Below, one piece after another: positions 6-15,555 of a stretch of 22,785 nucleotides of DNA (positions within the stretch are counted from its first letter, which is position 1; each line of letters begins with the position of its first letter). The stretch is taken from contig JBARVL010000638.1 in the NCBI GenBank assembly GCA_049646245.1, positions 1 through 22,785 on the forward strand, read 5' to 3'. Origin of the DNA: Crinalium sp. (GTDB lineage Bacteria; Cyanobacteriota; Cyanobacteriia; Cyanobacteriales; PCC-9333). The position numbers and the translations under genes are program-made. The notes under the pieces are model-generated. The model ran no database searches. It worked only from the letters and a program-made list of their open reading frames with translations, and was not told the DNA's origin.

Positions 6-410
6 ATGGGCGCTTCAGGACGTGGCGCTGTCATGGTTCGTGAAGATCCAGCAACGGGAAAAACAACGTATTCACAACTCGATCCGGCTGAGACTGTAGC
101 AGTTGGTTTAGTAAGATTACTAATCATTGAAGCGAGCCAACGTAATAATTTTCAAACTTTCAATCTGCCTGAAATTGCCGTTGCAATTAGAGGTCATCAA
201 GGCATTTTAAGAGACGCGCAAGCAAATTTGTTAGGCGCTCAAGGTTGGGTAGACGTAGCAAATCAACTAAGAAATTACGATTTGTACGGACAAAAAATTA
301 TCCCAAATCTTAACTCCGATTCCAGTACACCGACACCCCCAATATCAACCCCGAAAAAAGAAGAGGGGAAGAAGGGGACAAGGAGACTTGGGGACAAGGG
401 GAATAATTAA
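6..410 (+). CDS. Hypothetical protein, possibly the 3' part of a gene starting left of the window
   Basis: The frame stays open to the window edge, with no in-frame stop between nt 3 and 410. I recognise no family motif. The last ~15 codons (GKKGTRRLGDKGNN) are encoded by the G-rich repeat at 374-402. The stop lies 2 nt before the next ATG (413), suggesting co-transcription. Confidence 0.4.
   Translation: MGASGRGAVMVREDPATGKTTYSQLDPAETVAVGLVRLLIIEASQRNNFQTFNLPEIAVAIRGHQGILRDAQANLLGAQGWVDVANQLRNYDLYGQKIIPNLNSDSSTPTPPISTPKKEEGKKGTRRLGDKGNN
374..402. repeat. G-rich repeat copy (GGGGACAAGG..GACTTGGGGACAAGGGGA)
   Basis: The string gacttggggacaagggga recurs exactly, in inverted orientation, within 2341-2374. 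Related GGGGACAAGGGGACAAAGGGA occurs at 2218-2256. Confidence 0.55.
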
Positions 411-412
411 AA

Positions 413-1423
413 ATGCAACTAACAACCATAGCGAAATTGGCGATCGCACCCGTATCTTTAATTAGTGGTTTAGGACTATTAGGGGCAAGTTTTACTACTA
501 CTCAAATCACACAAACAGTCACGCCTTATAGTTCTGAGCAAGTTATTGTTAACCAACCCCTAGCAGAACCAGCTAAATCATTATTAATGTTTGGTGGTAG
601 TGCGATCGCAGTTTTGGGGACTGCCGGAGGCATATTTGCAGGTATTGAAGATTTAAAACGAAAAAATGGCATTCAGCAAACCAACTTTACTCAAACCAAT
701 TCATACCCACAGCTTCCTTTTGCCCCTACACCCGCACTCCCACTCAACCCGCAACCAGGACAGAATTTAAGACGTGAGCCTGCACAACAACCACAACAAC
801 CTGGACTTGGTTTTCAAAGGCAGCCCGCACAAGTTCCACCCCGCAATCCTGCAAATCAACAACTTCAAAGGCAAGTTCCACCCAATCAACAGCGACAAGC
901 ACCGCCACCAGCAGAACGTTTACCGATACGCTATCCAAAACCGTCTTCTTCAGACTCAACTGCTTCTAACAACTCTAGTAATCCTCCTGTACCTCAACCT
1001 ACTCAATTCCTAGATAGGTTTGATGAGATACGGAAGATCCTACTGAATATACCCACCTTGCTAATTTATGGCGGGATGGGAAGTGGCAAAACCAGCAAAG
1101 GCAAAGGAGGTTGGCTGGACGATGAGGATAAAGAAGCAACCCGCAAACTAACAATTCCTACAGGGATGGTTCCACCAAATAAGCAGGTAACTCCTAACGG
1201 TCAAACTTGGTACGACTTCCGCCCGCTATTACCAGAGGAACCAGAAAGTGCAGAAAGTGACGACGACATTATTAATAACGAACTGAGAAATGATGGTGAT
1301 GAACTATTGACCCGCGAAAATACAACTGATTTAGAAACCAAGTTTGCCGAGTTTGTCAACAAGAACAATTTGAGTCTAGAAAATTTCCCACCTCCCGACG
1401 AATGGGACGAAGAAGAACCGTAA
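413..1423 (+). CDS. Pro/Gln-rich membrane protein with an isolated Walker A (P-loop) motif
   Basis: There are two N-terminal hydrophobic helices (IAPVSLISGLGLLGASF; LLMFGGSAIAVLGTAGGIFAGI). A long PQ-rich low-complexity linker follows. Then comes LLIYGGMGSGKTS (GxxxxGKT, nt 1070-1093). Only ~110 acidic residues follow it, and I see no Walker B. Confidence 0.6.
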   Translation: MQLTTIAKLAIAPVSLISGLGLLGASFTTTQITQTVTPYSSEQVIVNQPLAEPAKSLLMFGGSAIAVLGTAGGIFAGIEDLKRKNGIQQTNFTQTNSYPQLPFAPTPALPLNPQPGQNLRREPAQQPQQPGLGFQRQPAQVPPRNPANQQLQRQVPPNQQRQAPPPAERLPIRYPKPSSSDSTASNNSSNPPVPQPTQFLDRFDEIRKILLNIPTLLIYGGMGSGKTSKGKGGWLDDEDKEATRKLTIPTGMVPPNKQVTPNGQTWYDFRPLLPEEPESAESDDDIINNELRNDGDELLTRENTTDLETKFAEFVNKNNLSLENFPPPDEWDEEEP

Positions 1424-1426
1424 TAG

Positions 1427-1495
1427 GCGCGAATGGATACAAACTGATGGCAACGCGAGCGCCAGTTTGTGTAGGTTCGATACCTACCCGCGTCA
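1427..1495 (+). ncRNA. tRNA-like element (acceptor-like and T-arm-like helices), non-canonical; possible tRNA-derived remnant
   Basis: gtagg-TTCGATA-cctac (1471-1487) matches the conserved tRNA T-arm (GTTCGAnnC). ggcgcga (1427-1433) pairs 6/7 with ccgcgtc (1488-1494). The interior instead forms an 8-bp helix, acaaactg/cagtttgt (1439-1446/1463-1470), and no canonical D or anticodon arm can be drawn. A further 7-bp hairpin tgcaact/agttgca lies at 1497-1518. Confidence 0.25.
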
Positions 1496-1604
1496 TTGCA
1501 ACTTGACCACGAGTTGCATCAACACCAACTTACTTATCTTTTTCCATTTGTCATTTGTGGTCGAATGGCAGTTTCAACCAATAGTTATTAAGGAATAAAT
1601 AAAG

Positions 1605-2213
1605 ATGGATTCAAGTTTAGTTCCTACTCAACGGGTACGCAATCCAGATCAAGATTTTGGCGGACAAGAAGACTACATTGATATCCAATTCCACCGAGTT
1701 CCAAATAACAGCCATGAGCAAGCTGTACGCCGAGCGCAGCAGGAATTACACCAAGCAAAGCAACGGCTAAGAAAGATGGAACGGAACATCGGCCCTGCAA
1801 TGCAATCTGGATCTTGTGCCGCTATAGACGTTGCAGGTCAATTTGTTCATAATTCTAAGCCCTGGCGTTTAGCGCAAGTCATCGGATTTTGGTCAATGCT
1901 GATCGGTCTATGCACGATCGGTGGTTGGGCGTGGAATGCAGCAGTTGGGGGTACTGCGGCTGCGGGTAATTCTGCTGCTTTACCAGCAAACGCGCCTACA
2001 GCTATGAGACTCGGCCACGGCGTTGTCAACGTTGGTAAACCTGTTGTTGGTGCAGTGTTTGCTGGCGCTAGTCAAAGTGTCGATCGCGGTGTACGAGTCC
2101 AACTAACAGGCAGTGCAGAACAAGTGCGAAATGTAGCCGTACCAACTAATGTGACTCCTTCCAGCAGCACCTACGTCCCTGTTGTACCAATCGCCAATTA
2201 CCCAGGACAGTAA
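1605..2213 (+). CDS. Hypothetical membrane protein
   Basis: This is a 202-aa ORF with an AG-rich stretch (aggaataaataaag) just upstream that could serve as a weak ribosome-binding site. It has a central hydrophobic segment (VIGFWSMLIGLCTIGGWAW) and a Gly/Ala/Val-rich C-terminal half. No family motif is recognised. It sits in the relatively GC-rich left end of the window. Confidence 0.5.
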   Translation: MDSSLVPTQRVRNPDQDFGGQEDYIDIQFHRVPNNSHEQAVRRAQQELHQAKQRLRKMERNIGPAMQSGSCAAIDVAGQFVHNSKPWRLAQVIGFWSMLIGLCTIGGWAWNAAVGGTAAAGNSAALPANAPTAMRLGHGVVNVGKPVVGAVFAGASQSVDRGVRVQLTGSAEQVRNVAVPTNVTPSSSTYVPVVPIANYPGQ

Positions 2214-2217
2214 TTGA

Positions 2218-2374
2218 GACAAGGGGAGGGGGGGACAAGGGGACAAAGGGAGAAGAACATCCTCAATTATTCGCATCCTCACAAATAGTACGACATTTGA
2301 AAAATCCGAGATATAGATATGTTCGTACTTTCTTAAAATCCCCCCTTCCCCTTGTCCCCAAGTCCCCCTATCCC
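2218..2374. repeat. ~157-bp imperfect palindromic element with G-rich/C-rich arms (MITE-like or large stem-loop)
   Basis: The left arm is gacaaggggaggggggggacaaggggacaaagggag (2218-2256). The right arm is cccccttccccttgtccccaagtccccctatccc (2341-2374), its approximate reverse complement. A nested inverted repeat agtacgacat / atgttcgtact lies at 2287-2296 / 2320-2330. The element fills the intergenic gap between 1605..2213 and 2383..2733. Confidence 0.6.
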
Positions 2375-2382
2375 ATCAACCT

Positions 2383-2733
2383 ATGCGAGTCATCATCTTT
2401 CCTAAAAGGTCAATCCTAATCACAACCGCCATCGGAAGTTTATTAATTTTAGACTTGACCAAACCTGGCTATCGCTCCTTTGCATTAGTCCCTGAATTGA
2501 AACCCCAAGTATTAGATGTTGTAACAGACTTTTCAAAAACTGCAACAAAGTTTAGCTCTTATGCAACTAATTCCTTAATCGCTACACCTAACTCCAATTC
2601 AGTCCCAAAAGCTAAATCTCAAATTAAATCTCAAATTAAAGAACTCAAACCTTGTGCCACTCTCCTCGAAGGCTACAAGAAGAATTCCAAAGGTGAACCA
2701 GTATGCAGGGGTATCGCTCAATCGACTTATTAG
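2383..2733 (+). CDS. Hypothetical small membrane-anchored protein
   Basis: This 116-aa ORF has an N-terminal hydrophobic helix (ILITTAIGSLLILDL). It contains a 12-bp tandem duplication encoding KSQIKSQIK (2614-2640). It overlaps the next ORF by 31 nt. Confidence 0.4.
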   Translation: MRVIIFPKRSILITTAIGSLLILDLTKPGYRSFALVPELKPQVLDVVTDFSKTATKFSSYATNSLIATPNSNSVPKAKSQIKSQIKELKPCATLLEGYKKNSKGEPVCRGIAQSTY

Positions 2734-5057
2734 CTGAATTACCGTTAGAGGTTCAGTACCAAGAACTCAAAGAACGAGAAAAGTACGAAGAACAGAAGCA
2801 GCTAGAACAAGAACTTAACCAACAAAAATATAATAATGCAATCGCACGGGGTCGTTTTCTATTATTCCTATTAAATCTAGGGATGATTGCGGTAATCGCA
2901 CTTCCGACTGCTAATCAATGGGCTACAAAAGTTACTGGTTTAGCTGACGTTATCCCAGAAGTACTGCAATCAATTCCCTCAATTCCAGAACTTTTTGAGC
3001 GTACTGAAAGGAATAGTCCAAAAAGTCAAAAATTAGCCAGTGCAGTTATTAACTACGCTCAACAGAAAAATTGGGTAATTCGGACTGGAGCCAGAAAGTA
3101 TAACATTTTCTATGTGCGCGGGATGAATCCTGACGGCACACTTAATGACAACAAGGTTAATGAATTTAACGATCTAAGAGTTGTTATTGAGATTGTTAAT
3201 AATACTCCCCGTATTGTTGGGTTGTGGGAAGGTACTGATGCCCCAGGTCTTCATTACATCAACAATCCCATGAATCCGAATGGGACAGCAACAATTGTCG
3301 CTGGACGACAATATCGCGCCTGGAAAATGGGATTTCATAAGGGCAATCCCAACCATCCAGCATTAATTCAAACAGGTGGAACCGTAACTGTTACAAGAAA
3401 TGGCGTTCCTTACGCTGGATACTTTGGCATCAATCAACACGGCGGCTATGACTACCCAAGAAATGACATTAAAGATGCTAGTGCAGCTTGTTTACTCGGT
3501 AGAACTCGCAAAGGACACAGTAAATTTATTGACTTGATGAACAAAGATACTGACTATGTGAGCGATCGCAACTATACCTTTTACTCCGGGATTATTTTAG
3601 GTGTAGCTGGGTGCGTATTTGTTAGTCGCAAACAACAATCGTTACAGTTTCAAGTAGCACAACCAATTAACGAAAAGTTTACCTCCAACAATAATGATGT
3701 CCACTGGGATTACTTGAGTGCTGGTATTTTAGTGGGTGCGATCGCATTCGCTGTTAGTGAACCTGTAAAAAATCAAGTAGTTAAACGAATAGCTATAGCT
3801 ACTACCAAAGTTCCTATAAATATTGAGCAACTTTTTGACAATAGTAAATCTGTTGGTAATGTTGCCATCTGTACTGCCGAGGGCAATTGTTTACCTGATG
3901 GTTCAGGAAATCATAGCAATTTGTACTTGCAAGGCGGTCACTTTGATCCGGCTAATAGAGTTTTCAACAGAGGTTTCTGTTCTGACCAGGGGCGCGGTAG
4001 GGACATGAATGATGCCGATATTAAGTGCGTTGAGCGAAACAAAAGTCGTTTAGACACAATCACTCAGCGCATGGCAGCAGAAGGAACACCACCACCGCAA
4101 CATATTAGCGCATTCATCAATGCTACTGACCTGTGGAACCAGGCTAGTCCAAGAGTTAGCGATAAATTTCCATCCAAATATAGTCAAGCTCTAAAGCAGG
4201 GAATGTCAGAGTTAGACGCGATCAAGTGGGCGAGAGTTGAAGCTTTCCGTAACTGGCGCGGTCAACTTGATGCTAGTGGATTGAGAAGAGTTTGTAGTAG
4301 CAAATGGTCATTTTCTCTCCAACAACAAGTTGGGTTAGTTGGTTTAGATAGCAACTCTGAAGAATATATGAAACGCTGCATTGGTTATGACCAATCAAGG
4401 CGGGCTAATGCGATCGCTATTACTCTCAAAAACTATGGCAAATCTGCTGGTATTAACCAAGTTGAGAATCCCCAACAATTAAGCAGTATTAAATCTGCCA
4501 ATACCAAAGCTAAAAATTCTCATCCTCAGTTGAGCGACATTCAATCTGTCAATAAAGATATCGTCCTTGATATGCGCTATGCCACCACCAACAACTTTAT
4601 AGGCAGGCAAGTTTACCCAAAAGCTAAATGTTTACTACAATCAACAGTTGCTAAAAAACTATCGAATGTTCAGCAAGATTTAGCACAGCTTGGACTGGGT
4701 TTAAAAGTGTATGACTGCTACAGACCATTATCAATCCAAAAAGTGATGTGGAAGCTAGTACCTGACGAGCGTTATGTTGCTAATCCTGCGACTGGCTCTA
4801 AGCATAATCGTGGTGCAGCAGTAGATTTGACACTGATTGATAGTAACGGCAAAGAATTAGAAATGCCAAGTGCTTTTGACGACTTTACAGAAAAAGCCCA
4901 CCGAAATTACACAGGGAGCAGTATTGAAGCCAAGAAGAATTCCTTACTACTTGAAACTGTAATGAAAAAACGCGGGTTTAAAAGCATAGCTACAGAATGG
5001 TGGCACTTTGAGTCACCTGATTGGAAGAAGTTTCCTGTAATGAATGTACAACTGTAA
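2703..5057 (+). CDS. Membrane-anchored multidomain cell-wall hydrolase with C-terminal M15 D-Ala-D-Ala dipeptidase (VanX/DdpX-type) domain
   Basis: The C-terminal ~165 aa (about nt 4560-5054) carry the DdpX/VanX signature MRYATTNNFIGRQVY, YDCYRP and SKHNRGAAVDLTL (His/Asp zinc ligands). They also carry MPSAFDDFTEKAH and EWWHFE (catalytic Glu plus His ligand). The N-terminus has a coiled-coil-like segment and a TM helix (FLLFLLNLGMIAVIAL), and there is a second hydrophobic segment near aa 300-350. The middle ~500 aa contain Cys-rich segments that I cannot assign. The exact start is uncertain. Confidence 0.85.
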   Translation: MQGYRSIDLLAELPLEVQYQELKEREKYEEQKQLEQELNQQKYNNAIARGRFLLFLLNLGMIAVIALPTANQWATKVTGLADVIPEVLQSIPSIPELFERTERNSPKSQKLASAVINYAQQKNWVIRTGARKYNIFYVRGMNPDGTLNDNKVNEFNDLRVVIEIVNNTPRIVGLWEGTDAPGLHYINNPMNPNGTATIVAGRQYRAWKMGFHKGNPNHPALIQTGGTVTVTRNGVPYAGYFGINQHGGYDYPRNDIKDASAACLLGRTRKGHSKFIDLMNKDTDYVSDRNYTFYSGIILGVAGCVFVSRKQQSLQFQVAQPINEKFTSNNNDVHWDYLSAGILVGAIAFAVSEPVKNQVVKRIAIATTKVPINIEQLFDNSKSVGNVAICTAEGNCLPDGSGNHSNLYLQGGHFDPANRVFNRGFCSDQGRGRDMNDADIKCVERNKSRLDTITQRMAAEGTPPPQHISAFINATDLWNQASPRVSDKFPSKYSQALKQGMSELDAIKWARVEAFRNWRGQLDASGLRRVCSSKWSFSLQQQVGLVGLDSNSEEYMKRCIGYDQSRRANAIAITLKNYGKSAGINQVENPQQLSSIKSANTKAKNSHPQLSDIQSVNKDIVLDMRYATTNNFIGRQVYPKAKCLLQSTVAKKLSNVQQDLAQLGLGLKVYDCYRPLSIQKVMWKLVPDERYVANPATGSKHNRGAAVDLTLIDSNGKELEMPSAFDDFTEKAHRNYTGSSIEAKKNSLLLETVMKKRGFKSIATEWWHFESPDWKKFPVMNVQL

Positions 5058-5091
5058 AGTTACAAGTTTAGCAATAAATATTAAGGAAAAA

Positions 5092-5289
5092 ATGAAAATT
5101 CAGACTGTCCTATTACTATCAAGCTTACTACTAACAAGCTGTACTGTCACTGCTCAACAAACGGGCGATAAAGATTGGGCTGTTTCCGTCAAACCAGATG
5201 GTACAGGCGTTAACATTCAACCCACTAAACCAGAGACAACGCCTAATACTACAACTTCAGTTACACCTAATTCTTCTAGCTATTCCTAG
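5092..5289 (+). CDS. Small lipoprotein
   Basis: MKIQTVLLLSSLLLTSC has a signal peptide with a lipobox (LTSC). An SD-like aagga lies 7 nt upstream of ATG 5092. The mature part is Thr/Pro/Ser-rich. I prefer this start over the track start at 5044, which overlaps the upstream gene. Confidence 0.55.
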   Translation: MKIQTVLLLSSLLLTSCTVTAQQTGDKDWAVSVKPDGTGVNIQPTKPETTPNTTTSVTPNSSSYS

Positions 5290-5545
5290 TTGTAAGATTC
5301 AATCATTTTTAATTACAGGAATACCAAGAGCAAATTTAATAATTGACGGTGATGGTGCTGGAGTAGCAATTATTAAAGGTGAACTGACAAGTCAGCGCTG
5401 GCGCTATCGCCTATTAACGCAAAGTTCTAAAGCGACTGAAGGAATAGCTACCTTGACACAGATGAAAAAAGGACAGTATAAAGTAGAAATTGTTTCTAGA
5501 GAAGATAAGTTTTTTACTGTTACATTTGAAATAACAAAAGAGTAA
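5198..5545 (+). CDS. Hypothetical protein, overlapping the lipoprotein ORF in the +1 frame
   Basis: This is a 115-aa ORF. Its N-terminal part (RQRLILQLQLHLILLAIPSC) loosely resembles a second signal/lipobox. The C-terminal 80 aa (GDGAGVAIIKGELTSQRWRYRL...KVEIVSREDKFFTVTFEITKE) look like a real beta-rich domain. The true start, or a frameshift relationship to 5092..5289, is unresolved. Confidence 0.35.
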   Translation: MVQALTFNPLNQRQRLILQLQLHLILLAIPSCKIQSFLITGIPRANLIIDGDGAGVAIIKGELTSQRWRYRLLTQSSKATEGIATLTQMKKGQYKVEIVSREDKFFTVTFEITKE

Positions 5546-5703
5546 AACAATGTCAAATTTTACAGAATTATATTCGCATTAACCAAAGGGAAAAACAACG
5601 TCAATTTCAGATTTTTTTAAAGTATATTTGAACCAGCCGAGTGTTAAAGAACGCCAGCATCAGAGCTTACAAAATTACATTCAAATCAACAAGGGATAAC
5701 ACA

Positions 5704-6456
5704 ATGTCAGACATACTAGGTAAAAACGGCAAACCGCTTACAGGTGCAGCTTTACAAAAAAGGTTGGCAAAAATTAAAAGGGATAATGCTACTAATCCTC
5801 CTTTGTTGGGGCATGAAATAATGGTTGAATATACTCCCTTTACCCAAAAAGAAAAGAAGGAAACAAAAACATTTAATTATCTTGAACCAGATGTAGAGTC
5901 TGAAATATTAGACCTAGACCCGCAAGTATTAGACATCAAGTTAATAACAGCTAAGATAATTACAGCACTCAAACAATCGGAGAATACTTTAAATAAAACA
6001 ACTGAATTCAGTCAGAAGCTTAAGGGACTACAGCTACAACTTAAAGAACGTCAAGGGCTAAAAGATTATCGGGAAGCAATTGGAATTGGCAATCAAGCAG
6101 AATTAAATCAAATTGCCGAAAAGTCTCACGAATCCAGTAACTTTTCAGTTCCCTTAAAAGATTTGAACGAATTAGTAACAGGTGTAGATGACCTGATTGA
6201 CTTAGTTACTGATCAAGACTTAAGAATCGGAAAAATAGAACAGCAAATAAACCAAAATAAAAGCTTTGCCAAGACTGCGAAAAACCTAGCAGACGTATTG
6301 CTAATTGGTAGCTTTGGCGGTGCAATTATAGGGCTATGCCTTGGAATTATGTACCCAGATCAATTGAAAATTGGAACTACATTTGGATTTGTGGGCGGCG
6401 CTAGTTTAGCTTTGCTCAACAAACTTAATCCTGTTAAAGAAAATCAAAATAGCTGA
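5704..6456 (+). CDS. Coiled-coil protein with C-terminal double transmembrane anchor
   Basis: ATG 5704 (MSDILGK...) is preceded by SD-like aaggga, and the track's GTG start at 5641 is less likely. The central heptad-like region runs QKLKGLQLQLKERQGLKDYRE...RIGKIEQQINQNK. The C-terminal hydrophobic helices are VLLIGSFGGAIIGLCLGIM and TTFGFVGGASLALL. Confidence 0.55.
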   Translation: MSDILGKNGKPLTGAALQKRLAKIKRDNATNPPLLGHEIMVEYTPFTQKEKKETKTFNYLEPDVESEILDLDPQVLDIKLITAKIITALKQSENTLNKTTEFSQKLKGLQLQLKERQGLKDYREAIGIGNQAELNQIAEKSHESSNFSVPLKDLNELVTGVDDLIDLVTDQDLRIGKIEQQINQNKSFAKTAKNLADVLLIGSFGGAIIGLCLGIMYPDQLKIGTTFGFVGGASLALLNKLNPVKENQNS

Positions 6457-6543
6457 AAAAAGTATGGGATTATTTTAATTGTTGAATAGTCCCATAATTT
6501 TTAGCAGATAAATTAGTACTTCATAACCATAAAAATTGCAACA

Positions 6544-7002
6544 GTGACAACCCAACTAACGTTTTGGCTACCTGGAAAGTGTTCTCCTAAAGTACGTCCC
6601 CGCGCCAGTGTTATTAACCAATCCCACAGCGTAAGTATTAAAAAAGCTAAAGCTCATGTTTACAACTGCCCGAGATACACAGCCTGGAAAAATTGGGCGA
6701 TAAGCAGCTTGTATCGACAGTTCCTCAACCAAAGTAAATCTAATCATCAACTACCTTTAGAACACATCGAAATCTTGATAGTGTTCATTGGCAAGCATCG
6801 TGGCGACGGCGAGAATATGGTAGGTGCAGTTCTAGATTCGGCAGTCCAAGCTAACATTATTACAGATGACTGTTTGAAAAATATTCCGAGGGGATGCTGG
6901 GAGCATCAAGAAGCAATTAACACAAAAATTACAGGAACTTTGGTGTTGATTCAACCAATTAAGCCAGCCTTGAAGAAGTTAAATCCAATTTGGGAGAAGT
7001 AG
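6544..7002 (+). CDS. RusA-like Holliday-junction resolvase (endodeoxyribonuclease RusA family), divergent
   Basis: The start is GTG. The N-terminal LPGKCSPKVRPR resembles the RusA 'P..K.RPR' motif. The core HRGDGENMVGAVLDSAVQANIITDDCL aligns by eye with E. coli RusA [27 protein letters not shown]. The acidic D.(D/E)N and DD motifs are retained, but the conserved Lys position is Gly. Size (152 aa) is appropriate. Confidence 0.5.
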   Translation: MTTQLTFWLPGKCSPKVRPRASVINQSHSVSIKKAKAHVYNCPRYTAWKNWAISSLYRQFLNQSKSNHQLPLEHIEILIVFIGKHRGDGENMVGAVLDSAVQANIITDDCLKNIPRGCWEHQEAINTKITGTLVLIQPIKPALKKLNPIWEK

Positions 7003-7303
7003 ATTCTTACACAGACTGAAGAACCTCCAGTGTTGCCCAAAAATAGTAGTCGTTCAAAAAATAATAGGCAAGTTAGCTAATTTTCAGTTATTGAAATATG
7101 GTAAATATTGCGATTGCTTTAGAGCATCAAAAAACAAGAAACAATTTGCACTAGATACTGCTCAAAATTTCAGAATTTATTCCACAGAGTAACTCAGTTT
7201 GTGCAATGTCTTCCCTTTGACAAGCTGATTGATGAAGAAGTAGTCAGGAGTCAGAATACTCTTTCTCCTGTCTCTTAGCTTCTGACTCACTACAAATTCA
7301 GAA

Positions 7304-7654
7304 TTACGTTGTTGTACTTACCTGGACTTTCAATTCCTCAGCTAAATGTTGCGCCAGAGCCCCAATGGTGGGGTAATCGTAGAGTACAGTAGGCTCAATC
7401 TCACATCCAAGCCACTCCTCTAGGTCACCACTCAGACCTACTGTTGCTGAGGAATCTAGACCGTAGCGATCGAAGGAAACCGTAACATCAATCTTATGTG
7501 AGTCAATTTCCAGTAGTTCTGCCAGATAGGAAACAAGCCACACTTGAATTTCTGTTGTCGTGGGCGACTCCTCTTGTATATCCTTTTTAGGATCGGCGTT
7601 GTTATTCCCAGAAATCGTAGGTATCTCGTTAACTTCAACATTCTGCTTTTCCAT
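7304..7654 (-). CDS. Acyl/peptidyl carrier protein (phosphopantetheine-binding)
   Basis: FDRYGLDSSATVGLSGDLEEWLG contains the GLDS(S) phosphopantetheine attachment motif in the usual four-helix context. I prefer ATG at 7654 because GGAGG (complement of 7663-7667) lies ~8 nt upstream. The track's GTG start at 7669 is possible. Confidence 0.85.
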   Translation of the reverse strand: MEKQNVEVNEIPTISGNNNADPKKDIQEESPTTTEIQVWLVSYLAELLEIDSHKIDVTVSFDRYGLDSSATVGLSGDLEEWLGCEIEPTVLYDYPTIGALAQHLAEELKVQVSTTT

Positions 7655-7690
7655 CGAGCGTGCCTCCACAGGTTTTACTAAGACGTTTTT

Positions 7691-7936
7691 TCACACAGCG
7701 GCTTCCAGTTGAGCTAGGCGCTTTTTTAGCTTATCTAACGCTTCTTTTAACTGTTCAATCTCCTGTTGCTGCTCTTCTATGAGCTGCTATTTTTCCTTGA
7801 TTTTTTTTGTTGCTGTTTAAGCTGCTGCTGTTGCTTGAGTAGCCATTCTCCTATCAGCCGCACTGGAGATAGCCATTTCCTCTAATGCAATGGCTATCTC
7901 CATCGCTGGGTTTATCAGTACGGCTGTTTTGGGCAT
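7691..7936 (-). pseudogene. Decayed coiled-coil ORF remnant (possibly the N-terminal leucine-zipper part of a transposase or other mobile-element gene)
   Basis: The minus-strand reading starts MPKTAVLINPAMEIAIALEEMAIS... In another frame it continues LIGEWLLKQQQQLKQQQKK up to an A8 run (T8 at 7801-7808 on plus). After an in-frame TAG (7787-7789) it reads QLIEEQQQEIEQLKEALDKLKKRLAQLEAAV*. The remnant is interrupted by at least two frame changes and one stop. The transposase attribution is only a guess from the style of the sequence. Confidence 0.3.
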
Positions 7937-8046
7937 GAGAGCTACTATACTCTAGTTTCATTTTGGATTCAAACCCTTGCCACACTTGGTTCCTAGCAAG
8001 TTATGAGCCACCATTGGCGATACCGCAACTGCGTTGCGGTGAGCAG

Positions 8047-9030
8047 TTACACTTTGGGAGATAATTTAGCTTCAATCATACGTGTTGTAGGATATTTAAC
8101 ATTCCAAGCTAAACCAACTTTTTCTAAGCCAAAAATTATCCAGCCACTAATATCTATTTGCCACCATTTTAATCCAAAAATCGCTGAACTAGGAAAAGTA
8201 TGATGATTGTTATGCCATGATTCTCCTAGTGTAGGAATCGCCAACACAAAATTATTTTTGCTACTATCTTGACTTGCAAACATACGATTACCAAAAACAT
8301 GAGCAAACGAATTAACACTGAAAGTTATATGTTGTACTACAAAAACTCGGACAACCCCACCCCATAAGAATCCATAAAAAGCTCCTTCAAAGCTTCCCTT
8401 TAAAGCTCCCCCTAAAATAGTAGGAATGGCTAAACTTAAAAATATCCATAGAAAATAAAGCTGATTTAACTTAGATATTAATTTGTCACGCATTAAATCT
8501 GAAGCATAGTAGGCGGAGTTAGGAATTTTGTGCTTAAACATCCACCCAATGTGGGCGTACCATAGTCCTCGTAACAAAGCTAATTTACCTTCACATTCTA
8601 AATGAGGAGAGTGTGGATCATCATTTTGATCGCTATTTTCATGGTGGCGACGATGTACAGATACCCAATAAATCATGGGGCCTTGAGTAGCCATAGACCC
8701 TAATATAAGCAGCAAAAATTTTATAGGAGTAGTTGTCTCAAAACTATGATGAGCACAGTAGCGATGAAACCCTATTGTAATCCCAGTTGTAGTTAGAATC
8801 GACATCCCAAATAGCAATCCTATTTCTACTATGTCTATAGAATGGCCCTCAAATAAGAAATAGATAGCCAGGAGTACTCCTAATAGCGGTAGTAAGGTAA
8901 TACTTAAAGCAAGAATGAACCGTGCTGATTCAAGTTGAGTACTATTAATTGTTTTTTTAAAGTATTTAGGTGCAGTTTCTAAATTTTCAAATGTATTATT
9001 AACATCGGTTTGTGCAGAATCAAATGACAT
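8047..9030 (-). CDS. Membrane fatty-acid desaturase, delta-9 (stearoyl-CoA/acyl-lipid DesC-like) family
   Basis: Three histidine boxes sit in the delta-9 family context. They are GFHRYCAHHSF, WVSVHRRHHENSDQNDDPHSP..YAHIGWMF and GESWHNNHHTFPSSAIFGLKWWQID. Hydrophobic helices flank them. An SD aagagg lies upstream of ATG 9030, and the gene starts 29 nt downstream of the FAAL stop. Confidence 0.9.
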   Translation of the reverse strand: MSFDSAQTDVNNTFENLETAPKYFKKTINSTQLESARFILALSITLLPLLGVLLAIYFLFEGHSIDIVEIGLLFGMSILTTTGITIGFHRYCAHHSFETTTPIKFLLLILGSMATQGPMIYWVSVHRRHHENSDQNDDPHSPHLECEGKLALLRGLWYAHIGWMFKHKIPNSAYYASDLMRDKLISKLNQLYFLWIFLSLAIPTILGGALKGSFEGAFYGFLWGGVVRVFVVQHITFSVNSFAHVFGNRMFASQDSSKNNFVLAIPTLGESWHNNHHTFPSSAIFGLKWWQIDISGWIIFGLEKVGLAWNVKYPTTRMIEAKLSPKV

Positions 9031-9059
9031 TGTATTTACCTCTTAAAAAATATCTTAAG

Positions 9060-10973
9060 CTATTTATTTGTTGCCTGAAAACCAGAATTAACTATATCAA
9101 GCGTTCCAGCTAAAAACCCAGCCCGACACGCATATCGCTGGATTTTACCGCTAGAAGTTTTGGGCATAGCCCCCACATTGAGTAACAAAACTGCATAAAC
9201 TTGCAATCCATGATGAGTAGCTACTGCTTCACGAATAGAAGCTATAACTGTATTAAAATCAAATGGTGCGGACAATTCAGTATGACTTGTGGGTGCGACT
9301 TGCATTTGGCAGTGATCTAAAGATCTGCGCTCAACTTCTTTAGCACTCGCTGGTTGTTGCTGACGGCGATTGTGATATCTGTGTTCAACTTCAGTTATCA
9401 CTACTAACTGTTCTTTATCATCTATTTCTACTGTGAAAGCAGCAGTACGACCAGGTTGGGGGATTGCAAAGTGGCTTTGTTCTACTGTCACTTCAATATC
9501 TTGGGGATAGTGATTACAACCTCGAATGATAATCACATCCTTAAGTCTGCCTGTAATAAACAGTTCTCCATCTTGCCAAAAACCTAAATCTCCAGTTCGC
9601 AGAAACGGCCCTGCACCTGTATCTGCTAAGTATGCCTGAAAACTCTGTGCAGTTTGTTCTGGTTTATTCCAATATCCTTGAGCTACACTACCACCTGATG
9701 TCCAAATTTCTCCAACCTGTCCATCAGCGAGTTGCAGTTGAGTTTCAAGATCAACAATTATGACCTTTTGATCGCCCCAAGTATAACCACAACCCACAAG
9801 TTTACGGGCATTTACTTGGCCATCAATAGCAGCAATAACTTGGTTTTGCTTTAGAGCATTTGCATCTACAGTTTGCACTACCGGAGGTTTAGCTTTTGTT
9901 CCACCTGTAACAAACAGGGTAGATTCTGCCATGCCATAACAGGGATAAAATGCTTCTATCCGAAACCCACAATCAGCAAAAGTATCTGCAAATTGTTTTA
10001 AACTCTGTAACTGAATTGGTTCTGCACCATTGTATGCCAGATTCCAGCTACTCAAGTCAAGGTTAGCTTTTTGTTCTGGTTTAATCCTTTGTACACACAA
10101 TTCATAACTAAAATTAGGCCCGCCGCTACTGGTAGCTTGATAATCAGAAATTGCTTGTAACCAACGTAAAGGTTTCTGCAAAAAAGAAACTGGCGACATT
10201 AAAATAACTGGAAAGCCACCATAAAGAGGCTGAATTATGCCACCAAGTAGCCCCATGTCGTGATATTGAGGTAGCCAGCTTACTGCTACCCTATCTGAAG
10301 GATGCCTAAAGCTTTGATAAATTAATTCTGAATTTTGCAGCAAATTCCCTTGACTCACCATTACACCTTTAGGCGTACCTGTTGAACCAGACGTATATTG
10401 TAGAAATGCTAGTTGATCGCTACTAATTCTGAGTGGTTTCCAGTCGGCAGCCAAACTAATATCTACTGTATCTGTAGCCAGCCATTCTAATTGTGTAAGT
10501 GTGTTTTGGTCAGCGAATTTTTCTTTGATATAAGTTAGTTGAGCATTAATTGTTAGGGCAAATTTTGGTTGACAATCATTAATAATAGATTGCAACCTGC
10601 TGAGCGATTGATTGCGTCGAGGTGGATAAACTGGGACAGCGATGGCTCCTGCATATAAACACCCCAAAAATGCGCTAATAAATTCTAGCCCTGGTGGATG
10701 TAGCAACAAGACTCGCTCTCCATGCGCTTGTGCTGCTTGAATCATGGTCGCAATACTCAGCGCTTGTTGCTCTAACATTTGATAGGTTAAACTAGCTTTT
10801 TCTGCTTTTCCGTCTTTAAGAAATACAAACCCAGTTTGATGTGGTTGATAGAAACTCCTATATTGTAATAGTTCAATTAAATTAGCGAATTTTAATTTTG
10901 TAGAGGATGGCAAGCTGGAAGAAATAGGCATAAAGTAACCATTGTATAAATAGAAAAGATAATCTTTCACCAC
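9060..10973 (-). CDS. Fatty acyl-AMP ligase (FAAL, FadD32-like adenylating enzyme)
   Basis: Adenylation motifs present are YTSGSTGTPKGV, YGMAE, GEIWTSGGSVAQGYW, FLRTGDLGF and KTSSGKIQR. GRLKDVIIIRGCNHYPQDIE is typical of FAALs. The N-terminal FANLIELLQYRSFYQPHQTGFVFL also follows the FAAL pattern. The track start is GTG 10973, and ATG 10931 (MPISSSL...) is an equally plausible start. Confidence 0.9.
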   Translation of the reverse strand: MVKDYLFYLYNGYFMPISSSLPSSTKLKFANLIELLQYRSFYQPHQTGFVFLKDGKAEKASLTYQMLEQQALSIATMIQAAQAHGERVLLLHPPGLEFISAFLGCLYAGAIAVPVYPPRRNQSLSRLQSIINDCQPKFALTINAQLTYIKEKFADQNTLTQLEWLATDTVDISLAADWKPLRISSDQLAFLQYTSGSTGTPKGVMVSQGNLLQNSELIYQSFRHPSDRVAVSWLPQYHDMGLLGGIIQPLYGGFPVILMSPVSFLQKPLRWLQAISDYQATSSGGPNFSYELCVQRIKPEQKANLDLSSWNLAYNGAEPIQLQSLKQFADTFADCGFRIEAFYPCYGMAESTLFVTGGTKAKPPVVQTVDANALKQNQVIAAIDGQVNARKLVGCGYTWGDQKVIIVDLETQLQLADGQVGEIWTSGGSVAQGYWNKPEQTAQSFQAYLADTGAGPFLRTGDLGFWQDGELFITGRLKDVIIIRGCNHYPQDIEVTVEQSHFAIPQPGRTAAFTVEIDDKEQLVVITEVEHRYHNRRQQQPASAKEVERRSLDHCQMQVAPTSHTELSAPFDFNTVIASIREAVATHHGLQVYAVLLLNVGAMPKTSSGKIQRYACRAGFLAGTLDIVNSGFQATNK

Positions 10974-11061
10974 TTCTCAATATTTTAAAAAATTTCTTGG
11001 AGTAGTGCATTTTTGCACTGATATAAGAAAAGATGGCCTCCAGAAAACACCCTCTAAAAAC

Positions 11062-11748
11062 TTACGAATTGAGTTTTGCTGAAATATACTCAAATGGTAG
11101 CTTGGCAAGATATATCTCTTTTGGAATGTCAATATCCGGTATACATAAGCATATTTCTAAATGATGCTCATGAGAACGATAATTTTCATGAACTTTATAC
11201 AGAGGCATAAGTTTTATCTTGCGAATTCTAACATTGAAAGTCTTAGCAAAATTAAAAATTGATGAACTTCCGGAAGCAACAATAACGTGAGGCTCTTTTT
11301 CATTAATATGCAGAAAATCTTGAGAAAGAGCAGCAGATAATAAAACTTCTGCAATTTTCTTACTTCGCCACTCTTTTTTAACAACCCATTTGGTCAGTTC
11401 TCTTACTTTCCCTGAAAATCTATCGCTTGCTTTTGCTTGTATTAAAACTTCTCTTATATCTTCTTCAGTTAAATTACCATATTTCTCTACATTGGTACCA
11501 GCAGTATATAAACCTACTGTACCTACTAATATTTCACAAGATAGCGCCATTAAATAGTATTGAGGGTAAGATTCAATCTTAGCTTCAGGATCAGAAATAA
11601 AATCTGAAAAAGTAATACCATATTGTTGATAGTAAATTTCTGAAATTAAAGTTTTGCATTGATTAATTTCAGACAATGTTTTTGCCACTTTAATTAATAT
11701 TTTACCTCGTTCATTTGATTCTAGTGGTTTTATATTATCCTGATTCAT
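11062..11748 (-). CDS. GNAT-fold acyltransferase resembling N-acyl amino acid synthases / LuxI-OlsB-type acyl-ACP-dependent N-acyltransferases
   Basis: The ORF is solid (228 aa, operon context). Function is inferred only from loose pattern similarity to that superfamily: CKTLISEIYYQQYGI (a..lR..vY...lG-type helix), YYLMALSCEILVGTVGLYT and VRELTKWVVKKEWRSKKIAEVLLSAAL (E-[ST]-[RK]-x-[AV]V-x-x-x-x-R segment). It needs an HMM check. Confidence 0.5.
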   Translation of the reverse strand: MNQDNIKPLESNERGKILIKVAKTLSEINQCKTLISEIYYQQYGITFSDFISDPEAKIESYPQYYLMALSCEILVGTVGLYTAGTNVEKYGNLTEEDIREVLIQAKASDRFSGKVRELTKWVVKKEWRSKKIAEVLLSAALSQDFLHINEKEPHVIVASGSSSIFNFAKTFNVRIRKIKLMPLYKVHENYRSHEHHLEICLCIPDIDIPKEIYLAKLPFEYISAKLNS

Positions 11749-11999
11749 ATTGTTTTTTTTGTGAAGGATATACTAAAATTCACACAACTAAAGTAGAAAT
11801 ACAGCCGGGGTACGTACAAATTGAAATACTTTGCAAAACGTCGAAAATGGGGGTATGGCGAAGTAAGTGCGAAATCAAATCCATTATAAAAAATAATTGC
11901 AAAAGCCTTTTTAAAATTTACTAAGTTACCCAAGGATGATAAAAAGCTTTTTCCATTAGCTCCCACGTTTTTAACCTTTTTGTACCGATCTTCTGTCAT
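11745..11999 (-). CDS. Possible small ORF (84 aa from ATG 11999; 87 aa from TTG 12008), translationally coupled to the acyltransferase gene
   Basis: It fills the whole MT-acyltransferase gap. It starts 8-17 nt after the MT stop (12016), and its TGA overlaps the downstream ATG as ATGA (11748-11745). The composition is Phe/Tyr/Lys/Asn-rich, as expected from random translation of AT-rich DNA, so it may be spurious. Confidence 0.2.
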   Translation of the reverse strand: MTEDRYKKVKNVGANGKSFLSSLGNLVNFKKAFAIIFYNGFDFALTSPYPHFRRFAKYFNLYVPRLYFYFSCVNFSISFTKKTI

Positions 12000-12015
12000 C
12001 TTGCTCAACCTATTT

Positions 12016-13014
12016 CTAGTGTTTTTTTTGTAATTTAATCAATAATGTAAGACCTGTAGGATCTCGTTCAATACTCAGGTTTATATTATTACTCTCCCCT
12101 ATATTGCTTACTAAGCGGTGAATATCAGCTTCACTTCGTTCAATAATATGCCAATCACCTAAGTATTCCATTAAAAGTCGGTCTGGATTTCCAGGCGCTA
12201 TGTTAGTAAAGTAAAGTGAGCCGTCATTATGTAACAATTTGACGAGTTTTGGTATAAGCCACTCAATTTGACGCTCTGTAAGATAATCAAATAAGCCACC
12301 AGCAAAAATCAAATGGAAAAATTGGTGTTCACTAAATTTACGAATTGACCGGAAAACATCACCTGGAATGAGAGTAATCCTGGAAGACAAACTTTCTAGA
12401 TTGTAGAGTGAATACCGTAAGGCTTCTAAATCTGCATCGTTGAGAAAGAAGTGAGTACCTGTTGGCTTGACGAATTTTTGAATACTTCGGATATCTCTAC
12501 AGCTACCACACGCAATAGAAAGAATACGCGCATTATCATTTGATAAGGAACTTTCGGCAATACATTGAGCTTGCCATTGCACTTTGTTTCGATGCTGTTG
12601 AGCAACTACACTTCTAAGTGCTTGATGATCTAAGTAGAAAGCTGGAGTATTAGGAGCAGCCTTAACGGAGTTATTACAAATATATTCAATAGTTTCAAAA
12701 TCTCCAGGATATCCTCTTGGCCATGTCTGGGTACGAGCAATCAATGGTGATTGGCTGAGAAGTAATCGTGCTGGTTCGATTGCTGTAAGTATTTCAGATC
12801 GCGATAGTTGCATATTTTCAGCTTCTCTAATAGCTGCACATAGTATATGCACGCAGGAAGCCATACGATAATATGCAATGAGGGAATCGGTCGGAAGGTT
12901 GGAAGCTAAATTTAAAAGATCAACAACAGTCTCTTGAAGCGTTTTGAACATAGATAATATTACTGATTGATTGGGAGTGAACACTGAAGAATCGGTTACA
13001 TAATCATCATTCAT
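12016..13014 (-). CDS. Class I SAM-dependent methyltransferase with N-terminal helical domain
   Basis: Motif I is ILSIACGSCRDI, and post-I is FFLNDAD with its acidic residue. Motif II is FHLIFAGGLFDYL and motif III is LLHNDGSLYFTNI. The ~150-aa N-terminal extension is unassigned. It is the first gene of the minus-strand operon. Confidence 0.7.
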   Translation of the reverse strand: MNDDYVTDSSVFTPNQSVILSMFKTLQETVVDLLNLASNLPTDSLIAYYRMASCVHILCAAIREAENMQLSRSEILTAIEPARLLLSQSPLIARTQTWPRGYPGDFETIEYICNNSVKAAPNTPAFYLDHQALRSVVAQQHRNKVQWQAQCIAESSLSNDNARILSIACGSCRDIRSIQKFVKPTGTHFFLNDADLEALRYSLYNLESLSSRITLIPGDVFRSIRKFSEHQFFHLIFAGGLFDYLTERQIEWLIPKLVKLLHNDGSLYFTNIAPGNPDRLLMEYLGDWHIIERSEADIHRLVSNIGESNNINLSIERDPTGLTLLIKLQKKH

Positions 13015-13260: not shown

Positions 13261-13569
13261 TCACTGTCTATTTACTACTAATCCAAATAGAAAACCCATT
13301 TGGTGGGCAAAAACAAATCCTCCAATAACTATGAATGGAATCGCTATAAGTATTGGCGACCAGTTATCTGATTCTGGAACCTCTTGAGAATTATCTGGTT
13401 GGGGGATTTGTGCAATTAAGTTTGGCGATTGAGTTAGAGAAATTGGGGTGAGGTTAGTGGGAGGCAGGTTGATATAGTTAGCTGATGCGGGAGTGGTTTC
13501 TAAAGCTGCTAGTAGGGATATTGCTAGGGGTAAGGTTTTTCCTAATCGGGATAAGTGATTTTTTTTCAT
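13261..13569 (-). CDS. Small secreted protein with C-terminal membrane anchor
   Basis: It has a signal peptide (MKKNHLSRLGKTLPLAISLLAALETTPASA), a Pro-rich linker and a C-terminal hydrophobic stretch (PILIAIPFIVIGGFVFA...FLFGLVV) ending in NRQ. Confidence 0.6.
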   Translation of the reverse strand: MKKNHLSRLGKTLPLAISLLAALETTPASANYINLPPTNLTPISLTQSPNLIAQIPQPDNSQEVPESDNWSPILIAIPFIVIGGFVFAHQMGFLFGLVVNRQ

Positions 13570-13881: not shown

Positions 13882-15180
13882 TTACGATTCACCAATTAAG
13901 GTAAAAGCTGCCCAGTCTTTTGGATGAGGATACAGCTTACGGGTTGCTAGCATCGCCATTCTCAAAGCATTGGCTTTATCTGGATTTTGTTGCAGATTGC
14001 GGTAAAATTCAACCATTAATAAATTTGTCGCGCGATCGCTTACACTCCACAAAGAACCGATCGCACTTGTCGCCCCGGCTGCAATAAAAGCGCGTGATAA
14101 ACCAATAACACCATCTGCTGTAATTCGCCCTGTTGCACTCTCGCTACCACTCAAGACAACTAAATCAGCACTGAGTTTCATCTTCATTATTTCACTAGCT
14201 GTGAGTAAGCCATTATCATTACCTTCAGGAGCCAAAACAATTGCGCCAGGTACATCTTGTTCTTGAAAATTATTGAGTGTATGGGTTGCTAAATGAATAA
14301 TATTAGCTTGAGCTAATCGTTTGACAACAGCAGATTTGGTGGCTGCCTTACCTGTAAGAGCTTGGGTATTATAGAAACGTGCGATCGCATTAGCTTCTTC
14401 TTCGGTACCTGGTAAAGAAGGTAACTGCTGAGGCGGTTCACCAATTTGAAATGGCACACTGGGCATAGTAGGATTACCTACTATTAAAACATCATTATTT
14501 TCCGGTTTTCTGCGTTGTTTTCTTTGGTAAGTTAAATCTAAAACTTGGATAGAAGGAGCCGTAGAAATAGTATGTCGATCTATTAAGTATTTACCGCTTT
14601 GATCTGGCAATGCTGGAAATGGAACCAAGAACAGCGATCCTTGGGGAATGAAGATGACATGAGCATCTACCTCAGTTGGTAAGAGATTTGCGATCGGCTC
14701 AATTAATAGTTGATGTAGTTGCTTTAAGCTATTGTTTTCACTATCTCTTTCATTGGGTTGTATTCTAAAAATACCTTTTAATCTTCTATTTCTGATCCCA
14801 GATTCATTCCGGCTATTATCAATCAATTCTTCTAGAGAAACCTTTTGTTTTGACAATAAAGATTTCAGATCGACACGGCGTAATGCTATTTTACCTGTGG
14901 GATTAATTACCCAGATTAGTAGTTCTGACGAGGAATTAACTTTTTTACCGTTAACTAAGGAACTATCCTCAATAATCGAGTATTGTACCAAGGTCGCTTT
15001 GTGTTGAGATGCAACTCTTTTGATTAGCTCGACTGTAGGTGAATTAACGGCTAGTTGCTCTGTTGTTATGGTTTGAGTTAATCCTTGTGTTATGCCCAAA
15101 GCGGGAAAATCAAGGGGAAAAAGCGCACTTATAGCTACCATAACACTAATAAGCGGGAAGAGTTTAATGAGACGTTGCAT
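13882..15180 (-). CDS. Secreted CHAT-domain protein (caspase-like fold) with Ser in place of the expected catalytic Cys
   Basis: An N-terminal signal-like helix is present. The C-terminal CHAT signature is IIHLATHT (His box), LVVLSGSESATG (where typical family members have LSAC.T.G) and GVIGLSRAFIAAGATSAIGSLWSVSD. The Cys-equivalent codon is AGC at 14143-14145. Confidence 0.9.
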   Translation of the reverse strand: MQRLIKLFPLISVMVAISALFPLDFPALGITQGLTQTITTEQLAVNSPTVELIKRVASQHKATLVQYSIIEDSSLVNGKKVNSSSELLIWVINPTGKIALRRVDLKSLLSKQKVSLEELIDNSRNESGIRNRRLKGIFRIQPNERDSENNSLKQLHQLLIEPIANLLPTEVDAHVIFIPQGSLFLVPFPALPDQSGKYLIDRHTISTAPSIQVLDLTYQRKQRRKPENNDVLIVGNPTMPSVPFQIGEPPQQLPSLPGTEEEANAIARFYNTQALTGKAATKSAVVKRLAQANIIHLATHTLNNFQEQDVPGAIVLAPEGNDNGLLTASEIMKMKLSADLVVLSGSESATGRITADGVIGLSRAFIAAGATSAIGSLWSVSDRATNLLMVEFYRNLQQNPDKANALRMAMLATRKLYPHPKDWAAFTLIGES

Positions 15181-15464: not shown

Positions 15465-15510
15465 GATCCCTATAGCGAAGCCAACCCGTAGGTATAGCAC
15501 TTTGAAAAAC

Positions 15511-15555
15511 TGCATAAGTCCCCAAGTGCTAGAAATATGTGGTTTTAGTAGGGAA
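15511..15555 (+). repeat. Copy A of ~45-bp direct repeat TGCATAAGT-N9-C(C/T)AGAAATATGTGG(A/T)TTTAGTAGGG(G)AA
   Basis: The sequence is tgcataagtccccaagtgctagaaatatgtggttttagtagggaa. It has the same spacing as copy B and an almost identical 3' half. It lies ~210 bp upstream of the sbnA-like start. Confidence 0.65.

Follow-up and report, generated by a model that had tools for sequence, protein, structure and literature searches.

The window analysed here is a stretch of 22,785 nucleotides, which is nearly the whole of a 22,859-bp contig in a metagenome-assembled genome (MAG) of Crinalium sp., a soil cyanobacterium. On its minus strand, at 13014-7304, five genes form an operon encoding a methyltransferase (MT), a 228-residue protein of the GNAT fold, a fatty acyl-AMP ligase (FAAL), a membrane desaturase and an acyl carrier protein (ACP). 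The last three of these genes are a conserved cassette of the JamABC type, an assignment that is strongly supported. It is possible, and this is the reading that we tentatively prefer, that the operon as a whole specifies a stand-alone acyl-transfer pathway, by which an unsaturated acyl-ACP would be transferred to an amine and the product probably methylated, with no assembly line being involved. The most valuable element of the operon is the GNAT-fold protein, which is a member of an extremely rare, uncharacterised family.

The five genes had been placed on the minus strand by an earlier note, made from the sequence alone, and all five are found there intact, on the same strand and closely spaced, in the order MT, 267-bp spacer, GNAT, FAAL, desaturase, 377-bp gap and ACP; a convergent, unrelated gene lies 3' of the ACP gene. 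The five enzyme assignments of that note stand at the superfamily level. Its logic is reasonable but over-confident concerning conservation and family membership, and its interpretation is partly supported. As judged from the gene calls on related contigs and from the lengths of homologues, shorter starts are likely for three of the proteins, giving 623 residues for the FAAL, 116 for the ACP and about 311 for the MT. The features are listed below (coordinates, strand, description; SAM is S-adenosylmethionine, ORF is open reading frame).

12016-13014, minus: MT, a PhcB-like class I SAM methyltransferase; 332 residues as called, about 311 from the likely start at M22
11749-12015, minus: MT-GNAT spacer with a spurious 87-residue ORF, flanked by a 20-nt direct repeat (repeat family D6)
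11062-11748, minus: 228-residue GNAT-fold acyltransferase of a very rare family, as judged from the predicted structure, Foldseek and the Pfam matches of relatives
9060-10973, minus: stand-alone FAAL, JamA-like; 637 residues as called, 623 from the likely ATG at 10931
8047-9030, minus: SCD-type membrane desaturase in the JamB position of the cassette; 327 residues, three His boxes
7670-8046, minus: desaturase-ACP gap with an imperfect 37-nt inverted repeat (7841-7925) and a short ORF remnant
7304-7669, minus: stand-alone ACP, JamC-like, the last gene of the operon; 121 residues as called, PP-binding
15767-20921, plus: SbnA, SbnB, a PF14518 haem-oxygenase-like protein and an LctP-like permease; a neighbouring block whose membership of the operon is only possible

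The FAAL-desaturase-ACP cassette

The FAAL is matched by the Pfam AMP-binding model at E 4e-65, and its best NCBIfam models are all of the FAAL or FadD32 types (E 1e-105 to 1e-139, none of them at the curated full-length cutoff). The FAAL-specific insertion of 27 residues in the N-terminal domain, after YGMAEST, is present, as shown by alignment with the coenzyme A (CoA) ligase of contig L002, and this insertion is also found in the cassette FAALs of L015 and L019. On these three grounds the earlier FAAL assignment holds. The sequence identity is 45-58% with the FAALs of cyanobacterial cassettes and 36-46% with those of other phyla. A private insertion of about 34 residues in the C-terminal domain (residues ~540-575, RRQQQPASAKEVERRSLDHCQMQVAPTSHTELSAP) is absent from the L015 and L019 FAALs.

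The desaturase is matched by Pfam FA_desaturase (PF00487) at E 5e-21, and its best sequence match in the Protein Data Bank (PDB) is the stearoyl-CoA desaturase SCD1 (4ymk, E 1e-26). In the family alignment the histidines of the three His boxes are invariant (H89, H94, H126, H129, H130, H276 and H277) or nearly so (H273). The description of this enzyme as a three-His-box desaturase of the delta-9 type is therefore correct as far as the boxes and the SCD-type family are concerned; the order of the genes is that of a JamABC-type cassette, and delta-9 regiochemistry is for that reason not implied, so that 'delta-9' is to be read as the label of an enzyme family only. The ACP was likewise correctly recognised as a stand-alone carrier protein with a GLDSS site: it is matched by Pfam PP-binding (PF00550) at E 8e-17, its attachment serine lies in DRYGLDSS, and it shares 41-74% identity with the ACPs of co-linear cassettes. 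The gap between the desaturase and ACP genes is far longer than in most related cassettes, and the ORF remnant in it, which is short, glutamine- and leucine-rich and of coiled-coil character, is possibly a relic of a mobile element.

A genome scan with the desaturase alignment gave 80 loci among the matches listed. At 11 of these 80 loci, and in a duplicated cassette of Nostoc C117, which was looked up separately, these three genes recur in an identical order, so that there are at least 12 co-linear loci, coming from cyanobacteria, Ca. Angelobacter, an Eremiobacterota MAG and a Brocadiaceae MAG. This synteny argues for a functional unit. At three further listed loci a FAAL and an ACP gene are nearby in a different arrangement, and the other listed matches are mostly planctomycete and actinobacterial desaturases of 39-49% identity, standing alone. 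The closest listed desaturase homologue (61%; L013, 7266-10725) is outside any FAAL-ACP cassette; it belongs to a series of tandemly arranged desaturase genes, of which one is split, and group II intron and IS elements surround them. Cyanobacterial cassettes with two to four desaturase paralogues in tandem between the FAAL and ACP genes, ahead of a polyketide synthase (PKS), are also seen at L025 (6854-10915), L020 (3769-5694) and L043 (7536-9791), which suggests that such cassettes make poly-unsaturated or enyne starter units.

The earlier note had started from the premise that FAAL-ACP pairs normally feed a PKS or a nonribosomal peptide synthetase (NRPS), and this premise is borne out. At five of the five cyanobacterial loci tested, a megasynthase directly follows the cassette, being a type I PKS (KS-AT-DH and further domains) in four cases and an NRPS (C-A-PCP) in one, and a large survey places FAALs mainly in clusters of the PKS, NRPS or hybrid kind (PMC12820801). 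The main rival to the proposed pathway is built on these facts. According to it, the cassette is a displaced starter module that delivers, in trans, an unsaturated or alkynyl unit to some PKS or NRPS from another part of the genome, and the MT and GNAT genes are unrelated neighbours. We consider this doubtful, even though several further properties of the locus are in its favour: the contig of 22.9 kb ends 7.3 kb past the ACP gene, close relatives carry the MT-GNAT pair without the cassette, and the GC content at third codon positions (GC3) is strongly different between the genes (0.18 for GNAT, 0.26 for the FAAL and 0.43 for the ACP; the MT value is 0.27).

The points against a displaced starter module concern the window itself and the cassettes elsewhere. 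The cassette has the same orientation as the GNAT gene and starts 88 bp after it (130 bp when counted from the alternative ATG). A PKS or NRPS acceptor for the ACP is found neither in the 7.3 kb downstream, where the contig ends, nor in the 9.8 kb that are visible upstream, which agrees with the earlier statement that there is no KS, C or A domain in 22.8 kb: no ketosynthase, condensation or amino-acid adenylation domain was detected by Pfam in 23 of the 27 window ORFs of at least 70 residues, the other four (71-91 residues) overlapping larger genes. Since the window is practically the whole contig, this statement is valid for the contig and does not extend beyond it. Cassettes that appear to be free of a megasynthase also exist, as at L022/L027 of Ca. 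Angelobacter, where no ORF is longer than about 930 residues (a comparison of lengths, the domains not having been scanned). In Nostoc C117 (L015/L016) the genes that accompany the cassette encode a thioesterase, a ketoreductase and a PCP-aminotransferase, and there are NRPS-like genes no more than 10 kb away.

The 228-residue protein, the methyltransferase and the origin of the operon

The 228-residue protein has only three clusters at 90% identity among 5.8 billion sequences, and its family comes to 44 representatives at E <= 1e-3 when 1.84 billion cluster representatives are searched exhaustively with HMMER. An AlphaFold (AF2) model calculated from a 33-member alignment has a pLDDT of 92.3 and a pTM of 0.88; these 33 sequences were needed, as an alignment of three sequences gave a pLDDT of 36. 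When this model is compared with the PDB by Foldseek, 161 chains match at E <= 1e-3, and all 50 of those listed have the GNAT fold. The best match is FeeM (2g0b; E 4e-7, TM about 0.5-0.6), and the acyl-homoserine lactone (AHL) synthases EsaI, LasI, BjaI, TofI, MesI and RpaI are interleaved near it, all within the top 33 matches, the E-values of this named set being 4e-7 to 9e-5; its members are N-acyl transferases that draw on a carrier-protein or CoA thioester. GNAT similarity, on which the earlier note had staked its reading beforehand, was thus found in sequence as well as in structure: 18 of the 33 family members match Acetyltransf_1 (PF00583), the best at E 2e-6, and the window protein alone reaches E 0.04, below the cutoff.

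The more specific suggestion that the protein resembles a synthase of N-acyl amino acids (NAS) or LuxI is in agreement with the fold, where FeeM and the AHL synthases come out on top, and is not in agreement with the curated NAS, LuxI and OlsB models, none of which is matched. The NAS family models (FeeM PF21926 and Acetyltransf_5) do not match the window protein at E <= 1; two of the 33 relatives touch them, with FeeM PF21926 at E 0.004 and Acetyltransf_5 at 0.025. Among the NCBIfam results of the 33 members there is no NAS or OlsB model, and a PDB profile search with the family alignment gave nothing significant (best GNAT, E 1.2). The family has a conserved C-terminal motif of its own, comprising P182, Y184, H187, Y190, P204 and D207. 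As modelled, the protein would work in the manner of the NAS/LuxI group and would be a member of neither family.

The P-loop-like motif differs between the members. It is degenerate in the window protein (RSKKIA) and canonical (QNKGIG) in P0003, a 65% homologue encoded beside a CoA ligase, and its central glycine is kept in 21 of the 33 members. According to a published account (PMC11685415), the CoA P-loop is lost in GNATs that depend on a carrier protein. Judged from three sequences, the state of the motif fits, weakly, a split between ACP and CoA as the donor carrier.

The genomic contexts of the family fall into different types. P0003 (L002-L004) is flanked on one side by an aromatic ammonia-lyase and the CoA ligase, and on the other side by a CADD-like haem-oxygenase-fold protein and a quinone-reductase-type enzyme; this is a second, independent pairing of the subfamily with an acyl-activating enzyme, the first being the pairing with FAAL and ACP. 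In L002 these genes form a compact cluster at 6720-12708, encoding the ammonia-lyase (best match PAL, below cutoff), the CoA ligase, the GNAT-like protein, the CADD/TENA-like haem-oxygenase-fold protein and a PIG3-type quinone oxidoreductase, which looks like a pathway for an aryl-acyl amide. A haem-oxygenase-like protein was considered as a partner common to the window and L002, and this was rejected, as there is no detectable homology between the two (E 0.1). A module that recurs among the distant members consists of an Rv1355c-family ThiF-nitroreductase, the GNAT-like protein, an slr1658-superfamily regulator, an slr1659-superfamily protein and a SpoIIE phosphatase (L008, 974-5911; L106, 2345-5458; L011, 2325-3622; L105, 526-2349); we know of no described function for it.

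From these contexts the 228-residue family as a whole looks regulatory, with the window subfamily departing from it. It is conceivable, but in our view unlikely, that the window protein is likewise a regulatory GNAT that acylates a protein or peptide, in which case the operon would modify a protein or a ribosomal peptide. The distant members are consistently followed by the HATPase-like regulator of the slr1658 superfamily, or are fused to it (P0129 and P0147), with slr1659-type, SpoIIE and Rv1355c-family partners near, and cyanobacterial GNATs that lipidate ribosomal peptides are known (PMC10088813). The window subfamily (the window protein, P0002 and P0003), however, is without those partners and is encoded beside acyl-activating enzymes instead, and no gene resembling a precursor peptide or a maturation enzyme was recognised nearby.

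Very unlikely, by our estimate, is a LuxI-like function, in which the protein would join an acyl thioester to SAM or another small amine to give an AHL-like signal, and in which the switch between aryl-CoA (L002) and acyl-ACP (window) would mirror that between RpaI/BjaI and LasI. The AHL synthases among the top fold matches include the CoA-dependent RpaI, BjaI and MesI, and the ammonia-lyase and CoA ligase of L002 resemble the aryl-CoA donor logic of RpaI, the 4-coumaroyl-homoserine lactone synthase. In an alignment with LasI, whose sequence was verified against 1ro5, the invariant residues E59, E117 and K120 fall on D44, E101 and R104, respectively. That alignment is non-significant, however (hhalign probability 0.2%), and the LasI residues R23, W33 and D47, which we take to be residues of the SAM pocket, are aligned with non-equivalent residues of the family. 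Furthermore, the LuxI models of Pfam (Autoind_synth) and NCBIfam match none of the 33 members, and no LuxR-type gene was found among the scanned window ORFs. Readings beyond the proposed pathway and these three rivals are left with little probability.

The MT is matched by Pfam Methyltransf_25 at E 8e-4, which is below the curated cutoff; it matches no NCBIfam model and no relatives were found in the PDB. Its family is large (1228 homologues), and the family alignment shows conserved motifs; the N-terminal domain of the MT (WPRGYPGDFETIEY, AQQHRNK) is conserved. Many homologues, with identities of 40-62%, are named 'extracellular factor 3-hydroxypalmitic acid methyl ester biosynthesis protein' (the PhcB KO) by JGI, and the earlier guess of a PhcB-type MT agrees with these automated labels. 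A tblastn search against plasmids gave only class I MT matches, at 23-29%, and no PhcB label. The MT homologue of 69% identity stands alone, among peptidoglycan-binding and pentapeptide-repeat genes.

The full operon was found only in this organism, in the window and in an identical contig of 4.9 kb (L001), and three arrangements can be distinguished. The first is that of the window and L001, with the MT gene, the spacer, the GNAT gene and the complete cassette. In the second, of about 90% DNA identity, the MT gene and a short spacer are followed by the GNAT gene and, about 15 bp past its stop codon, by unrelated sequence (L005-L007). In the third, also of about 90% identity, the MT gene and the spacer are followed by a DDE transposase gene instead of GNAT (L098/L099). 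In each of L005-L007, the three contigs with the 89% GNAT homologue, the MT and GNAT genes lie side by side. About 200 bp of the MT-GNAT spacer is absent from L005/L006 and present in L098; because this part is missing in a 90% relative, the 87-residue ORF inside the spacer (11745-12008) is probably not a gene. Taken together with the uneven GC3, these arrangements mark the operon as a young, lineage-specific mosaic, recently assembled rather than a conserved pathway, in which the MT and GNAT genes are the recurring pair and the cassette is the variable add-on.

The proposed pathway and its surroundings

In the proposed pathway, the FAAL would adenylate a free fatty acid and load it on the serine of the GLDSS site of the ACP, and the desaturase would then introduce an alkene or alkyne into the ACP-bound chain; both steps are predicted from homology and synteny by analogy with JamABC. 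The 228-residue enzyme would subsequently move the acyl group from the ACP thioester to an amine, in the way of FeeM, OlsB and LuxI enzymes. An amino acid could be the acceptor, with locally made L-2,3-diaminopropionate being one candidate. Finally, the PhcB-like MT may add a methyl group to the product or to its acid, the simplest outcome being a methyl ester. The product would be a lipid resembling an N-acyl amino acid methyl ester or a fatty-acyl signal, or another fatty-acyl amide. When combined with the apparent mosaic origin, the MT and GNAT genes would be an older core that used ordinary acyl-ACP, to which the cassette added a dedicated, modified acyl donor.

Several observations weigh against this pathway. 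The sequence comes from a MAG, and the pathway is a prediction from the genes. The TM-scores of the 228-residue model are only about 0.5, with generic GNATs close behind the FeeM and LuxI matches, and the protein matches no curated sequence model of NAS, LuxI or OlsB. Most of the distant family members (30-40% identity) are found in Rv1355c-family/slr1658/slr1659/SpoIIE regulatory modules and not in biosynthetic clusters. The cassette is absent from the contigs of about 90% identity that carry MT and GNAT. Among 80 metagenome loci of the MT family, a GNAT gene adjoins the MT gene at that of the close relative only, and a FAAL, ACP or desaturase neighbour is seen at none; none of these four is a neighbour at any of the other 79, and the linkage of the MT is thus not conserved. 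In addition, co-transcription could be interrupted at the gaps of 267 and 377 bp. Cassettes of this kind usually serve a PKS or NRPS, and such a gene could be located past the end of the contig.

A candidate source of the acceptor is located 2.7 kb upstream of the operon, on the opposite strand, where SbnA and SbnB, the enzymes of L-2,3-diaminopropionate synthesis, are encoded. Both score above the equivalog cutoffs of NCBIfam (TIGR03945, 359.7 versus 349.95; TIGR03944, 391.2 versus 326.9). Synthesis of L-2,3-diaminopropionate is reported to be rare in cyanobacteria. It is a possibility that this block supplies the amine acceptor for the 228-residue enzyme, and in a bolder form of the low-probability speculation given below, L-2,3-diaminopropionate would be the acceptor and the product an N-acyl, methylated diaminopropionate lipid. 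The block continues with the PF14518 haem-oxygenase-like protein of 385 residues, which has no NCBIfam match, and the LctP-like permease, and its 5.4 kb are bracketed by 58-nt direct repeats that are 74% identical (15503-15560 and 20951-21008). The Sbn block was also considered as a conserved partner of MT-GNAT, which is unsupported, as it is absent beside MT-GNAT in L108; there, a CHAT fragment and a homologue of the window ORF 21233-21790 lie within the 1.8 kb upstream of the MT gene.

If the pathway exists, it has several implications. FAAL-ACP cassettes are treated as markers of PKS/NRPS lipopeptides, and their wiring to a stand-alone GNAT-fold transferase would be an assembly-line-free route to modified fatty-acyl amides. 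The reaction of the 228-residue protein would annotate a family of 44 representatives without a characterised member, including those in the slr1658/slr1659 modules. It could also provide a first genetic handle on signals of the N-acyl amino acid methyl ester type, a product class currently without known biosynthetic genes, and on acyl-signal synthesis in cyanobacteria. A further speculation, to which we give a low probability, is that the 228-residue protein and its two close relatives are a new class of acyl-signal or lipoamino-acid synthases, related to LuxI and FeeM by fold only, in which the donor has switched between aryl-CoA and desaturated acyl-ACP, and which together with the PhcB-like MT makes molecules of the N-acyl amino acid methyl ester type in soil-crust cyanobacteria.

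Directly upstream of the MT gene, on the minus strand, are an ORF of 102 residues without a family match (13261-13569), in which an apparent signal peptide, a proline-rich middle and a C-terminal membrane anchor can be read by eye, and a gene for a CHAT-domain protease of 432 residues (13882-15180); in the relatives L005 and L108, too, MT-GNAT is flanked by CHAT fragments and by a caspase-like gene. At the other end, the plus-strand gene at 2703-5057 encodes a protein of 784 residues with a C-terminal Peptidase_M15 domain (D-Ala-D-Ala dipeptidase, VanX/VanY-like); its N-terminal 600 residues and most ORFs at 6-7002 have no Pfam match. Short G-rich repeats with a period of 8 nt (GGGGACAAGGGGA type) occur at 369-402, 2218-2259 and 2346-2375, as direct and inverted copies flanking the ORF at 1605-2213. 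No Rfam family and no tRNA was found in the window, and a scan of it for promoters and terminators gave counts at or below those of shuffled controls.

Comparison with known systems

At the level of the product, there is an analogy with Roseovarius N-acyl alanine methyl esters (NAMEs), which have the same chemistry as is predicted here, being N-acyl amino acids with a methyl ester, and which are analogous to AHLs. The biosynthetic genes of NAMEs are unknown (PMC11580390). The analogy is limited to the product, and the organism and the acyl chains differ from those of the window.

The MT is compared with PhcB of Ralstonia, the synthase of the methyl 3-hydroxymyristate/palmitate signal, which is a class I SAM methyltransferase like the MT and makes the quorum signal methyl 3-hydroxymyristate (PMC8578825). 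This putative likeness is derived from the automated JGI KO names of homologues of 40-62% identity. Unlike at the PhcB locus, there are no phcS- or phcR-like sensor genes near the MT, and the MT family is large, its 1228 matches being mostly without lipid-gene neighbours.

The 228-residue model has its fold in common with the LuxI-type AHL synthases, including the CoA-dependent RpaI, BjaI and MesI, and by analogy both families would seem to use acyl-ACP or aryl/acyl-CoA, depending on the member. The two are distinguished by the lack of sequence-profile membership and by the unmatched LasI residues R23, W33 and D47. FeeM and the NAS enzymes (PF21926, Acetyltransf_5; with OlsB as a relative) provide the best structural match, and in these systems, too, a carrier-protein-dependent GNAT is encoded adjacent to a dedicated ACP (PMC11685415). 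In this comparison the window protein differs in having no significant match to the sequence models and in the C-terminal motif of its own family.

The counterparts of the cassette are JamABC and TtuABC, in which an acyl-ACP ligase loads the fatty acid and the chain is then modified on the ACP by a bifunctional membrane desaturase/acetylenase (10.1101/291195; PMC10088813). The jamaicamide-type terminal-alkyne cassettes JamA-JamB-JamC and TtuABC have the same proteins and the same gene order as the window cassette (10.1101/291195), the likeness being one of family and synteny. In the Jam and Ttu systems the chain goes on to a PKS or NRPS, whereas in the window the only candidate acceptor enzyme is the GNAT-fold protein.

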